DNA of 64,000 nt from Staphylococcus phage AH12. Shown one piece after another: positions 6,627 through 10,274 of this stretch. The stretch lies in the sequence record OR455461.1; one strand, written 5' to 3'. The notes beneath the pieces are model-generated. The model searched no databases. It was not told the DNA's origin and worked only from the letters and a program-made list of their open reading frames with translations. Within the stretch, counting starts at the first letter, position 1. Every line of letters starts with the position of its first letter. The translations under genes were made by a program, and so were the position numbers.

Positions 6627-6654
6627 CTCACCGCAGTTATTCTAAATATTATTA

Positions 6655-6780
6655 TTTAGCTAGACTATATCATTACCATTTAAGGTAGAATATATTTAGT
6701 CGTTGAACACTAATTAAAGTGATGCTGATTAATTTAATAATCTCTCAGCAATTAATATTCTTTACATTTATACATTTCTA
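6655..6780 (-). mobile_element. mini group I intron-like element (copy A)
   Basis: Minus-strand reading gives AAUUGCUGAG (P-like), AAUCAGCAUC (Q-like), GUUCAACGACUAAAUAU (R-like), a hairpin, then GAUAUAGUCU (S-like); boundaries approximate. Confidence 0.55.
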
Positions 6781-6877
6781 TATAACGGAGCCTTTTATTT
6801 GACTCTGAGAGGATTGTTGTTTATTCTTGATCTGTAAAACTTAGACATTTATATTAACTATATTTATTTAAAAAATA

Positions 6878-6995
6878 GATTAGACTATATCATTACCATT
6901 TAAGGTAGAATATATTTAGTCGTTGAACCTCTTATTTGAGGATGCTGATTAATTCAATAATCTCTCAGCAATTAATATTCTTTACATACATATTA
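6878..6995 (-). mobile_element. mini group I intron-like element (copy B)
   Basis: Same P/Q/R/P8/S architecture; IGS-like GAAAUA sits 13 nt before the P3 strand GAAUAU. Confidence 0.55.
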
Positions 6996-7117
6996 TTTCT
7001 AATACATGGGACACAAAATTTATCCGGTGTTCTTGTGGGAATACCACTGTAATTATTAAAGTCAATTGATTTTGCACTTAATTTCTATTTTATTAATCTT
7101 TATAATATAATTTATAA

Positions 7118-7235
7118 AGTATAGACTATATCTTCATTCTATATTATAGAAGAACTATATTTAGTCGTTGAACACTATTTAAAGTGATGCTGATTATTTT
7201 ATTACTCTCAGCAATTAATAATTTAATAATTCTTT
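7118..7235 (-). mobile_element. mini group I intron-like element (copy C)
   Basis: Same architecture; P3 here is GAAUUAU/AUAGUUC, which covaries with other copies; P9-like hairpin CUUUAUAA...UUAUAAAG. Confidence 0.55.
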
Positions 7236-7283
7236 AATTTATATAAAGAACGGCAAATAATTTACCTGATGGTTCATGTTTTA

Positions 7284-8831
7284 CGAATCTATATTAACTT
7301 CATATAGATCCCAGACTATATCTTAAAGTCTATGAAGACCTTTCACTTATTTAGTCGTTGAAGCTCTTTAATTATATTTTCAATCTCTTTTAAATGGTCT
7401 TGTTTATAGTTTATTCTATAAAGAGGAATATTTTTATTGATACAATATTCATCTTTCATTTTATCTTTCATTCTAATCTCTTCTAATTTTTCTTTAGGAA
7501 ATCTGCTACTAGGATTTTTCCTAAAATGCTGTTCACCATCATATTCAATTAGTACATTATAATCTACTAAATAAAAATCAAATCTTAAATTTTGATTTAT
7601 TTTTAGATCTTCAAATGTTTTCTCAAACTCAACATTTGTATTCGTATCAATTAAATATTTTTCTATTTGACGGTGAGCTAATGAATTTGCATACTGTTTT
7701 GCACAAAAAGGACATTTATTTATAGAATCTTTAAAATATTCTGCTTTCATTTTAAAATTATTTCCACATTTTTTATGATGAAAATTGTAAATATTTTTAG
7801 TTCCCTTGAATTCATTATCTAGTATTAAATATTCATTTGAATTAAATTTTTTATTACATATTTCTAGAAATTCTTTTTTTGTTAAGAATTTATTCTCTAA
7901 GCTACAATGTGGACATTTATAATCATTATTTAACATATTATTTGCTAGCATATTAAAACTTCTGTTACATTTTTTATGAAGGAAATTATGTTTAGTTTTA
8001 ATTCCTTTAAACTTGTCATCTAATAATTCGTAATCATCATAATCTTTTCTATTTTCTTTCATTTTTTCATTAAATGACTTTTTATCGTATTTTAATAATT
8101 TAATTTTATCACAATTAGGACAAATAATAACATTATTTAAAAAACTTCCTCCGGTCATTTCAAATTCAGTTCCACAATCATCATGTTTAAATTTTGTTAT
8201 TTTAGAGAATCCATTATACTTTCCTAAAATAGAATACCCACTTATATTTTTCTCTTTTTTAGCCTTTTCTAAAAACTCTTCATTACTATATTTCACAGAG
8301 AAACAACAATTTGGGCATCGATTCATATTGTATAAAAATTCAGAACCTTTCATTGTAAAATATTTTCCACATTCTTCATGGTAAAACTTATGGTGTTTTT
8401 TAGTACTTTTAAAATCATCAATTAATTTATAACCTTCAGTACTTTTTCTTTTGTTTGCTTCTTCCATAAAAGTTTTATTATTGTATTTTAAACCATTTTC
8501 ACATTTAGGACATCTCTTAGAGTAATCTAAAAAACCTCTACCTGTCATTTCAAATTCAGTTCCACAATCAACATGTAATATTTTATGATTAAATTTATAA
8601 CCTTTATACTCTTCTAATAATTCATAATTTCCAATATTCTTTTCTTTTATTTTATTCATATATTCTTCATGTGTTAATTTTACCATTTATTTCCTCACCT
8701 TTCCAGACCAATAGAAAGGATTTTAATATAATTAAATTAGCATGCTGATTACTTTTAAAGCTTCTCAGCAATTAAAGTGATTTTTCATTTATTGTTACCA
8801 ATATAAGGAAGCTAAAACATAATTTGTCTTT
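7284..8831 (-). mobile_element. group I intron-like element carrying an endonuclease ORF (interrupts RNAP beta-like gene)
   Basis: The P/Q half is at about 8725-8790 (AUGCUGAUUA ... CUCAGCAAUUAA). The R/P8/S half is at 7311-7370. P9 hairpin GAUCUAUAU..AUAUAGAUUC is followed by G at 7284. The 447-aa ORF lies between the two halves and its C-terminus overlaps the R box. Confidence 0.5.
7343..8686 (-). CDS. intron-encoded zinc-ribbon-repeat protein with C-terminal PD-(D/E)xK (Vsr/DUF559-like) endonuclease domain; putative homing endonuclease
   Basis: Five repeats of an H-x2-CG-x2-F-x-M-...-CP-x-C zinc-ribbon unit; C-terminus RFDFYLVDYNVLIEYDGEQHF matches the Vsr/DUF559-type nuclease signature; the final codons (NLRQLNK) are encoded by the intron R box. 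Confidence 0.6.
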   Translation of the reverse strand: MVKLTHEEYMNKIKEKNIGNYELLEEYKGYKFNHKILHVDCGTEFEMTGRGFLDYSKRCPKCENGLKYNNKTFMEEANKRKSTEGYKLIDDFKSTKKHHKFYHEECGKYFTMKGSEFLYNMNRCPNCCFSVKYSNEEFLEKAKKEKNISGYSILGKYNGFSKITKFKHDDCGTEFEMTGGSFLNNVIICPNCDKIKLLKYDKKSFNEKMKENRKDYDDYELLDDKFKGIKTKHNFLHKKCNRSFNMLANNMLNNDYKCPHCSLENKFLTKKEFLEICNKKFNSNEYLILDNEFKGTKNIYNFHHKKCGNNFKMKAEYFKDSINKCPFCAKQYANSLAHRQIEKYLIDTNTNVEFEKTFEDLKINQNLRFDFYLVDYNVLIEYDGEQHFRKNPSSRFPKEKLEEIRMKDKMKDEYCINKNIPLYRINYKQDHLKEIENIIKELQRLNK

Positions 8832-9384
8832 ACTTCAGGTGATACAAATCTCCAACCATAAATGTTCTATTACTAACATCTAGTCGGTTTTTCTTAATAT
8901 TGTATTTATTGAATAAGTATCTGATTTGTTCAGATTCAATATTATCAAAGAAAGGTGCTTGATGAAGTACAATACCATTTTTAATAAAGTCTTCAATAGC
9001 TTCTTTAGTTTCTTCACTATCTAAACTATCAAATAATCTTACATAATTATCATAAGATACTTTATCTGCATCTTTGATATATTCTAATAAATATTCTTTC
9101 TGCTTATTAACATCATCTAACTTACTAATACGATGTCTAATAACGCTTGAAATATGATTTAATTCTAATTCCACTAATGCTGAAGGATTTCCTCTATTAA
9201 TAATACCCATATTATTATGAATTAAGTCTACTCTTTTCTTAATAGGAGTTTTATTATCTTTGGTGAAATCTTCTCCATCAAATTCAGTAATCATTGGCAT
9301 TTCATTATCTGGAACAATCTTAGCTACTACACCTTTTCCACCGTATCTTGTGCTTATTTTTGCATTTATGTTAATGAACTTCAT
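8830..9384 (-). CDS. rpoB-like: RNA polymerase beta-subunit fragment (exon c; real exon probably begins at 9362)
   Basis: KISTRYGGKGVVAKIVPDNEMPMI..GIINRGNPS matches the beta region [27 protein letters not shown]; it ends VGDLYHLK, comparable to VGYMYMLK. Confidence 0.7.
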   Translation of the reverse strand: MKFININAKISTRYGGKGVVAKIVPDNEMPMITEFDGEDFTKDNKTPIKKRVDLIHNNMGIINRGNPSALVELELNHISSVIRHRISKLDDVNKQKEYLLEYIKDADKVSYDNYVRLFDSLDSEETKEAIEDFIKNGIVLHQAPFFDNIESEQIRYLFNKYNIKKNRLDVSNRTFMVGDLYHLK

Positions 9385-9545
9385 AGACTTTACTAAGAAG
9401 ATCAGACTATATCATTACCTTCATATAAGGTAGAATATATTTAGTCGTTGAACACTATTTATAGTGATGCTGATTAATTTTATAATTCTCAGCAATTAAT
9501 ATTCTTTACATATAAATTTTCATTCATAAGGGACCTATTAATTTG
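9363..9545 (-). mobile_element. mini group I intron (183 nt) in RNAP beta-like gene
   Basis: The 5' exon ends GGAU and pairs with the IGS GUCC. Core boxes P, Q, R and S are present, with P3 GAAUAU/AUAUUC and P8 UACCU/AGGUA. The predicted join ...KKPLVHG|SKISTRYGGKGVV has exactly the same length as E. coli [25 protein letters not shown]. Confidence 0.6.
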
Positions 9546-10074
9546 ATCCATGCACTAAAGGTTTCTTCTCTAATACTTTAACTCTAAATACGATTTTATC
9601 AAATTGATTTCCATCATATACAAGTTTAGCATTAGGATCAATGTAGCTCTTAAATCTATTATAAGTTCTAATTAAATCATTACTAAATTTCTTCTTACGT
9701 ACAATATCATCAGTAACAGTTACAAATGTACGGTAGAAGTGTTCTAAATCTTTGATATATTTTAGGAATTGTTCAGAGTACTTTTCATTCTCTAATTTTT
9801 CAATTGATTCATTGTTAAGTACATCAATATCAATAACTTTACCATGCAATTTATAAGCGTTATCACTTTCAACAATTTTAGATAACATATCATTTTTAAA
9901 TTTATGGATTAACTCATCATAATTTAATCGTCTTGTTGCAGTTAATACACCGTCTTTAATTTCTTCACCAACGTCTGGAAATGCTTTATAATATTCTTCA
10001 TCTCCATAAATATTTAAAGGAATATCATTTGTATTTATAGTTACATTAACTACATGAACGAAATAACTTGACAT
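9538..10074 (-). CDS. rpoB-like: RNA polymerase beta-subunit fragment (exon b; real exon about 9546-10113)
   Basis: In-frame upstream of the annotated ATG is EDGIVVSESLAEK, comparable to beta EDSILVSERVVQE, with no start codon. The piece ends KIVFRVKVLEKKPLVHG, comparable to [19 protein letters not shown]. Confidence 0.7.
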   Translation of the reverse strand: MSSYFVHVVNVTINTNDIPLNIYGDEEYYKAFPDVGEEIKDGVLTATRRLNYDELIHKFKNDMLSKIVESDNAYKLHGKVIDIDVLNNESIEKLENEKYSEQFLKYIKDLEHFYRTFVTVTDDIVRKKKFSNDLIRTYNRFKSYIDPNAKLVYDGNQFDKIVFRVKVLEKKPLVHGSN

Positions 10075-10113
10075 TTTCTCAGCTAATGATTCTGATACAA
10101 CAATACCATCTTC

Positions 10114-10274
10114 CTATAGGTTATAATTAATAAAATTATACCATAGACTATATCATTACCGTTTAAGGTAGAATATATTTAGTCGTTGAACACTGTTTTT
10201 AGTGATGCTGATTAATTTAATAACATCTCAGCAATTAATATTCTTTACATACATAAATTTCTTTATGCAGGAAC
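10114..10274 (-). mobile_element. mini group I intron (161 nt) in RNAP beta-like gene
   Basis: The 5' exon ends AAUUUU and pairs with the IGS GAAAUU (U.G at the splice site). The intron ends ...CCUAUAG immediately before GAAGAUGGU. The predicted join ...KINF|EDGIVVSE matches the conserved beta motif NFEDSILVSE exactly. Confidence 0.65.

Follow-up and report, generated by a model that had tools for sequence, protein, structure and literature searches.

The question raised by this locus is what class of element interrupts the genes for two RNA polymerase (RNAP) subunits and a gyrase subunit in Staphylococcus phage AH12, and how such elements might be removed. The stretch analyzed (64,000 nt, sequence record OR455461.1, referred to as the window; positions are counted from its first nucleotide) belongs to a jumbo phage, and the regions compared are 94–97% identical to phages Machias and vB_StaM_PB50 (PB50). 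A sequence-only reading had interpreted a family of short minus-strand repeats in it as miniature group I introns. That interpretation is supported in its essentials by the sequence evidence given below: the elements are very probably true group I introns in an unusually compact form, and the class, structure, and description as a compact family proposed for them here are new relative to earlier annotation.

Junctions were placed by comparing the window with homologues without the insertion, and host genes were named by homology and after their annotated counterparts in Machias and PB50; all three genes, and all features of the window described below, are on the minus strand. In silico removal of six copies from the gene encoding the C-terminal portion of the non-virion RNAP beta subunit (nvRNAP-beta, 6249–10814, 7 exons) left a 2139-nt open reading frame (ORF) with a single terminal stop, whose 712-aa product aligned end to end with the uninterrupted protein of phage S6 at 82.6% identity, with all junctions intact (GFTN|EDG, VHGS|KIS, HLK|LKHEP, SGKL|SAKS, RTPD|SK, and PLR(V)|GEME). 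The same gene is uninterrupted in PALS_2, DC4, SA1, AR9, and PBS1 as well as in S6. Removal of three copies from the gene encoding the N-terminal portion of the virion RNAP beta subunit (vRNAP-beta, 25451–28026, 4 exons) gave 2055 nt encoding 684 aa, in which VGYLHVKRLQQLLSKK...MKTGQL matched intron-free SA1 exactly and VPVGYLHVKRLQQLLSKKNAYSLDASSRSMKTGQLSG was likewise the same as in SA1, and removal of two copies from the gene for DNA gyrase/topoisomerase II subunit B (gyrB, 37908–40511, 3 exons) gave 2283 nt encoding 760 aa, gapless against AR9 GyrB at DAD|DDG and GLG|EVN. Predicted excision of all 11 copies thus restores three conserved reading frames, colinear with their S6, SA1, and AR9 homologues.

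The smallest exons left between adjacent introns measure 18, 20, 44, 63, and 68 nt, and their size bears on a different reading, that each gene really exists as several pieces translated on their own and that the repeats are intercistronic regulatory or structural sequences. [quoted passage not shown] Because exons of 18–63 nt encode conserved residues and the covariation is at the RNA level, separate translation was taken to be excluded, being exceedingly improbable.

The number of copies was determined by motif scans and by a covariance model. A scan for the R box, GTTCAACGACTAAATAT, in which as many as 3 mismatches were allowed, returned 11 matches in the window, all on the minus strand, where 0.5 were expected, and matches to the P, Q, and S boxes adjoined every R box in constant order. 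The P box of the copy at 26208–26354 (AACTGCTGAA) has two mismatches and escapes a 1-mismatch scan, and a AATTGCTAAG match at 39180 was discarded as a chance match within a gyrB exon. A custom covariance model of the kind that had been suggested, made from the window's own intron copies (R1), was run on the 64-kb window and retrieved the same 11 copies and no others, with the ORF-bearing copy returned as two halves. The earlier count of at least 11 minus-strand copies with a fixed box order therefore becomes exactly 11, of which six lie in nvRNAP-beta, three in vRNAP-beta, and two in gyrB; the range of 6627–10274 given for the first six was inaccurate, as they span 6634–10286. Ten copies are 144, 147, 168, 173, 176, 177, 179, 180, 183, and 194 nt long, and the eleventh (7284–8831) reaches 1548 nt because a 447-aa ORF is inserted in its P6 loop, so that the size of about 144–185 nt first proposed describes a miniature form that ten copies (144–194 nt) do have and the eleventh does not.

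Within nvRNAP-beta, nvB_i1 (173 nt, 10114–10286) lies at the junction GFTN|EDGIV (guide GUUC, exon GAAU, L2 loop GAAA), nvB_i2 (183 nt, 9363–9545) at VHG(S)|KIS just 5' of the RYGGKGV motif (guide GUCC, exon GGAU, L2 GAAA), and the ORF-bearing nvB_i3 at HLK|LKHEP (guide GCUUC, exon GAAGU), where it has the core of the other copies, with UCACUU/AAGUGA as its P3. A 20-nt micro-exon (7264–7283) separates it from nvB_i4 (179 nt, 7085–7263; junction SGKL|SAKS, guide GCC, exon GGU), which is followed by nvB_i5 (176 nt, 6846–7021; junction RTPD|SKFY, guide GUCC, exon GGAU, L2 GAAA) and nvB_i6 (168 nt, 6634–6801; junction NPLR(V)|GEME, guide GCUC, exon GAGU, L2 GAAA). In vRNAP-beta, vB_iA (147 nt, 26208–26354; junction VPVG|YLHV, guide GCUCAAUU, exon AGUUGGGU) is separated by an 18-nt micro-exon (26190–26207) from vB_iB (194 nt, 25996–26189; junction VKRL|QQLL, guide GCCUC, exon GAGGU, L2 GUAA), which has a long P6 and whose 3' end was fixed by comparison with intron-free SA1; vB_iC (180 nt, 25748–25927) lies at SMKTG|QLSG (guide GCCG, exon CGGU, L2 GUAA). 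In gyrB, the Toprim motif DAD|DDG is interrupted by gyrB_i1 (177 nt, 38820–38996; guide GUCG, exon CGAU, L2 GUGA), and the smallest copy, gyrB_i2 (144 nt, 38082–38225), lies at FKGLG|EVNADE (guide GCUCAA, exon UUGGGU).

At all 11 junctions, the last base of the 5' exon is U and the last base of the intron is G. For seven junctions the spliced sequence allows a unique placement, which is U/G in every case; at the remaining four, where several placements are equivalent, just one of them is U/G. The G of the guide sequence is located 9–20 nt into each intron, and the next 3–5 bases pair with the exon tail, leaving the splice-site U in a U.G wobble, so the internal guide that had been proposed to pair with the upstream exon end across a U.G at the splice site holds for every copy. 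When G.U pairs were allowed everywhere, cognate and non-cognate exon/guide combinations were poorly separated (4.8 versus 3.3 bp), and for this reason only Watson-Crick pairs were counted after the U.G; under this rule, 8/11 cognate pairs reached at least 4 bp, compared with 5.8% of 104 non-cognate pairs. The P1 helices of vB_iA and gyrB_i2 extend to 6–8 bp if G.U pairs count. A twelfth site, found in Machias at TRYG|GKGV, has a matching guide of its own, GCCG.

The core consists of paired (P) and joining (J) regions in the canonical group I order, and includes the P3/P7 pseudoknot: P3, J3/4 (UAA), P4 (UGCUGA/UCAGCA), P5 of 3–4 bp, P6 of 4–7 bp, J6/7, P7 (GACUA), J7/3 (AAU), P3', P8 of 4–7 bp, J8/7, P7' (UAGUC), and P9. 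Over the 11 copies, the R box GUUCAACGACUAAA and the S box GAUAUAGUC are invariant or almost so. At the 3' end, the P9 hairpin is followed by a single-stranded tail of ~5–13 nt and then by the terminal G; the hairpin and the G had been recognized before, but as immediate neighbors. After the guide sequence, a P2 hairpin of 6–8 bp is present in eight of the ten small introns; seven of these hairpins close with a GNRA loop (GAAA in four, GUAA in two, GUGA in one). P2 and P8 are both absent from vB_iA and gyrB_i2. Accordingly, P8, the hairpin between the R and S boxes, shows the compensatory changes expected from the pairing that had been described for it, but does not occur in every copy, as it is missing at 26208–26354 and 38082–38225.

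Covariation was scored first on a raw MAFFT alignment of 10 window copies, in which 93.9% of cells were paired, against 28–52% when the registers were slid by 1–3 columns; 11 pairs had changed on both sides, and none of 500 shuffles reached the observed values. A wider set of 89 model matches, of which 67 were distinct, was drawn from the window together with related Staphylococcus phages and contigs of uncultured viruses. Over the 67 distinct relatives, 96.2% of cells were paired (slid registers, 29–47%), and 20 of 28 pairs, distributed over P3, P4, P5, P6, P7, and P8, showed compensatory change, for example from G-C to A-U in P4 and from A-U to G-C in one P7 pair. The covariation proposed earlier for P3 (GAAUAU/AUAUUC, CAUAU/AUAUG, AAUUAU/AUAGUU, CACUU/AAGUG) is present in the sequence, and the assignment of the P/Q pairing to P4 and of GACUA/UAGUC to P7 is upheld by both pairing and compensatory changes. 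When nvB_i6 (168 nt) was folded with 6 nt of exon, the minimum free energy and centroid structures recovered P1, P2, P4, P5, P7, P8, and P9 (z = -4.0); the fold of the 144-nt gyrB_i2 recovered P1, P4, P5, P6, P7, and P9 (z = -2.25), with 6 of 200 shuffles as good. Joint loss of P2 and P8 was considered as evidence of a tertiary contact between the L2 tetraloop and P8 and was rejected as such, since P8-less cores of the uncultured subfamily retain a P2-like hairpin; within the Staphylococcus subfamily, 5/5 P8-less cores are without a GNRA P2 and 14/17 P8-bearing cores have one, which is kept as a suggestion of an L2–P8 contact.

Several results weigh against assigning the elements to group I. 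At its gathering threshold, Rfam gave no match to RF00028 (Intron_gpI; threshold 50 bits, 253 model positions) anywhere in the window, and none was obtained over 5 kb at E ≤ 10; Rfam is also described as detecting no introns in a paper on the related phage DC4, which may simply be without this family. The alignment of 67 sequences was fitted to the model, which inflates its pair counts, but P7 is outside the model and the raw MAFFT alignment agrees. The helices are short and ~76% A+U, with 6 bp in P4, as few as 4 bp in P6 and P8, and a barely defined P5 (79–87% of cells paired), so that autonomous folding at physiological Mg2+ is uncertain, and P8, a helix of the canonical P3–P9 domain, is absent from 2 of 11 copies. 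When RF00028 was aligned end to end on single introns with lax filters, nvB_i6 scored 34.6 bits and gyrB_i2 27.0 bits; these alignments assigned the same helices as derived here, with P2 and P8 of gyrB_i2 coming out as deletions, and the R and S boxes of the window aligned to the consensus GUUCAaAGACUAAA and AAGAUAUAGUC. The Intron_gpI search that had been suggested as a check therefore gave a full-model alignment with matching helices, at scores (27.0–34.6 bits) below the threshold of 50, and such sub-threshold scores mean that routine scans miss the elements.

The alignment to RF00028 also bears on whether the insertions might be removed by group II splicing, bulge-helix-bulge splicing, or translational bypassing. 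Group II introns are known from related jumbo phages (PMC12350094), and the S6 homologue of vRNAP-beta contains a different, endonuclease-containing insertion near KRL|QQ with no terminal G. No group II family was matched in the window by Rfam at the gathering threshold, however, the P, Q, R, and S boxes of group I are present and align to RF00028, and eleven bypasses of 144–1548 nt would be without precedent; removal by any of these routes was judged barely conceivable. As to the S6 insertion itself (~1.9 kb near KRL|QQLL, with a 436-aa ORF; locus L130, ~1870–3790), there is no G at the 3' junction where one is required, so that it is probably not group I and may be a group II intron.

A close known counterpart is found in phage Twort, which also infects Staphylococcus and whose orf142 likewise carries several tandem group I introns (I1–I3) in one short gene. 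The Twort orf142 introns are phage-type group I introns that self-splice, and a crystal structure is known. Three RF00028 matches were obtained there (locus L133, 16606–17506; 64–101 bits, spans of ~225–287 nt), compared with 27.0–34.6 bits for the two window introns searched singly and lengths of 144–194 nt for the small ones. Twort and window introns agree in J2/3 (AAAA) and J3/4 (UAAUU) as well as in their R box, (G/U)CAACGACUA, and their S box, GAUAUAGUC, and R1 matches all three Twort introns, but weakly (21–28 bits), with long Twort insertions where the window introns carry 4-bp hairpins. Introns of the phage-type subgroup IA2, to which T4 td and Twort orf142 belong, have additional helices (P7.1/P7.2) between P3' and P8; these are absent from the window introns, in which P3' abuts P8 and leaves no room for them. 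The weak R1 matches and the larger, higher-scoring Twort introns indicate that the window family is a diverged, reduced relative of phage-type introns, with P5, P6, P8, and P9 trimmed to minimal hairpins. The clustering in the genes of one phage, which had been called unusual, is confirmed, but the three tandem introns of Twort orf142 are a precedent.

Compact group I introns are known from elsewhere. The Azoarcus pre-tRNA-Ile intron (~205 nt) is usually cited among the smallest that self-splice; its core is compact yet complete, P2, P5, P6, P8, and P9 being short, and its tertiary contacts are made by GNRA tetraloops, with L2 docked in P8. Likened here by description only, it is G+C-rich and ~10–60 nt larger, whereas the window introns have ~24% G+C and two are without P2 and P8. 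To our knowledge, the window introns would be the smallest natural ones in which the group I core is complete. [quoted passage not shown] The earlier statement that the elements would be smaller than any natural group I intron consequently stands for full-core introns, against Azoarcus as generally cited and Twort spans as measured, and not against these fungal candidates (PMC3160393).

If the elements are group I introns, free guanosine held at the invariant P7 (GACUA/UAGUC) would attack after the exon-terminal U, the freed 5' exon would attack after the intron-terminal G and be joined to the next exon, and the elements would thereby be removed from the mRNAs of three essential genes. From these features we infer catalysis by the introns, protein-independent or not. 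That some copies are decayed, non-splicing relics and their host genes partly pseudogenes could be argued from the loss of P2 and P8 in two copies and from the divergent P3 and R box of vB_iB. The RNAP and gyrase genes are presumably essential, though, and their exons are intact and in frame; P4, P7, J8/7, and the guide pairing are kept in all copies, and the P8-less form is itself conserved, with the same copy in Machias, two P8-less introns in phage LY01, and recurrent examples in uncultured phages, so that decay was considered very unlikely.

A serious rival is that fold and chemistry are of group I but that a phage or host protein, such as a maturase-like endonuclease or an RNA chaperone, is needed for folding and splicing, chiefly of the 144–147 nt copies without P2 and P8. 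Small bacterial and phage group I introns, for example those of Azoarcus and Twort, self-splice, the core elements P7, J8/7, J6/7, and the A-rich J4/5 are all conserved, a protein is encoded by only one of the 11 introns, and GNRA L2 loops suggest tertiary RNA–RNA stabilization, all of which speak for the RNA alone. On the other hand, the paired regions are very short and A+U-rich with a minimal P5, and the fold of gyrB_i2 is matched by 6 of 200 shuffles at z = -2.25. Known large ribozymes are said often to rely on protein cofactors (PMC2813881), and according to Korn et al. (bioRxiv 10.1101/2020.12.14.422802) no plaques are formed by these Staphylococcus jumbo phages at 37°C, which, by way of speculation, would fit thermolabile RNA folds. 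A need for protein was therefore regarded as a possibility of some substance, although not the likelier outcome; the chemistry would still be that of group I.

The ORF within nvB_i3 (7343–8686, 447 aa) encodes a putative homing endonuclease that has Zn-ribbon repeats (C..CPxC), five in number, and at its C terminus a nuclease-like domain containing IEYDGEQH. It crosses J6/7, P7, and J7/3 and ends with its stop codon within P3' (7343–7375), so that coding sequence and catalytic core overlap by ~30 nt. [quoted passage not shown] The other ten copies contain no ORF, and probably spread by homing or by recombination between co-infecting relatives; guide-directed reverse splicing may be a further route.

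Site occupancy varies among near-identical phages. PB50 has only three of the six nvRNAP-beta introns (i1, i2, and i6, and thus not nvB_i5), and Machias is without nvB_i1 and has, instead of nvB_i2, an intron 23 nt downstream at TRYG|GKGV (locus L002, 4446–4640), the twelfth site mentioned above, with L2 GCAA. In the window, vB_iA and gyrB_i2 are 85% identical but lie in unrelated genes, and their sites share solely the upstream guide-complementary UUGGGU; this is the pattern expected of ectopic reverse splicing, which is put forward as a hypothesis from one pair. A stronger proposal is that the 168–194 nt forms, and even the 144–147 nt forms without P2 and P8, self-splice free of protein as the smallest natural full-core group I ribozymes, and in addition multiply to tens of copies per jumbo-phage genome as miniature transposable ribozymes, by guide-directed reverse splicing without a homing endonuclease. 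It would explain both the similarity of vB_iA and gyrB_i2 in unrelated genes and the introns placed 23 nt apart in relatives of 94–97% identity, and is offered tentatively, as its two parts together were thought rather unlikely.

The compact group I introns extend well beyond the window. In a blastn search with one window intron, matches were obtained in five phages (LY01, 33 places; Machias, 29; PB50, 21; Madawaska, 12; MarsHill, 10) and none in S6, PALS_2, DC4, or SA1; window introns are 77–99% identical to copies in the five positive phages. Introns have been annotated in Machias, MarsHill, and Madawaska in the same genes, namely those for RNAP subunits and gyrB, with exon boundaries drawn from protein alignment and with no class, structure, or family given (Korn et al., bioRxiv 10.1101/2020.12.14.422802), and no account of this compact family turned up in the literature searched for phage group I introns of compact or miniature size. 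In the Machias record, nvRNAP-beta is joined from 6 exons and vRNAP-beta from 3. Three intron cores were nevertheless found in Machias vRNAP-beta (locus L008, 3373–3928), as in the window, against its 3 annotated exons, so that the record is probably in error about one intron and the 18-nt micro-exon. Introns are also said to have been annotated in Bacillus phage AR9 by Lavysh et al. in 2016. AR9 was considered as an experimentally studied member of the family and rejected: its first 50 kb, including two gyrA introns, gave no R1 or Rfam match, and the gyrA introns are of another sequence type than those of the window. Directly upstream of the vRNAP-beta gene in the window lies an 1184-aa ORF (28173–31727), whose syntenic gene in Machias bears the annotation of a DNA gyrase subunit A that contains an intein, which would place inteins and introns side by side in this replication/transcription module.

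In uncultured viral DNA, the exact R...S motif occurs in at least 120 stretches. Some of these are canonical introns that pass RF00028 across the motif at 53–92 bits; examples (L015, L025, L027) have TTCAACGACTAAA...ATATAGTC exactly as in the window and a Q box of the AAUC(C/A)GCAGC type, but differ in RF00028 spans of ~220–390 nt, extended P5 and P9, and additional sequence between P3' and P8. Others are compact introns on phage contigs of 200–400 kb, which score 40–77 bits with R1 and are missed by Rfam. On such contigs, four to six compact cores stand in arrays 171–250 nt apart (L058, 3199–4204; L079, 12381–13541; L049, 6730–7702; L035, 604–1384); this spacing is an upper bound on the length of intron plus exon, and the arrays would be trains of mini-introns parted by micro-exons. 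An RNAP-beta-like ORF was found near the arrays at three uncultured-phage loci only. A scan of one genome per bacterial species for the Q..R..S pattern returned only 12 loci, some on contigs of 208–371 kb. Compact cores were observed on a 371-kb contig deposited as ‘uncultured Mycoplasmatota bacterium’ (L145, 44.6 bits) and on a 208-kb contig deposited as ‘uncultured Gemella sp.’ (L142, 38.7 bits), which by their size may be jumbo-phage genomes binned as bacteria. Separately, an R1 match of 38.7 bits was observed in the Twort-like phage Golestan-100 (L132, 1423–1547), in an unannotated gap after the tail tube CDS; Rfam gave nothing in this gap even at E ≤ 0.1, so that its blind spot reaches Herelleviridae.

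Since the curated Rfam model misses the family, essential jumbo-phage genes have been deposited as fragments, as in PB50. The family is large, with ~10–33 blastn matches in the genome of each of five Staphylococcus jumbo phages and arrays of up to six cores in uncultured phages. If RNAs of 144–194 nt self-splice, they would set a new lower size for a natural full-core group I ribozyme and P2 and P8 would be dispensable together; they could then be used in studies of ribozyme structure and folding, and as small introns for RNA circularization by permuted intron-exon constructs and for trans-splicing. For the phages themselves, many near-identical ribozymes in one transcript, with exons as short as 18–60 nt between them, would pose a folding puzzle, and it may be speculated that failure to plaque at 37°C is linked to how stable the A+U-rich mini-ribozymes are that sit by the dozen in essential genes.

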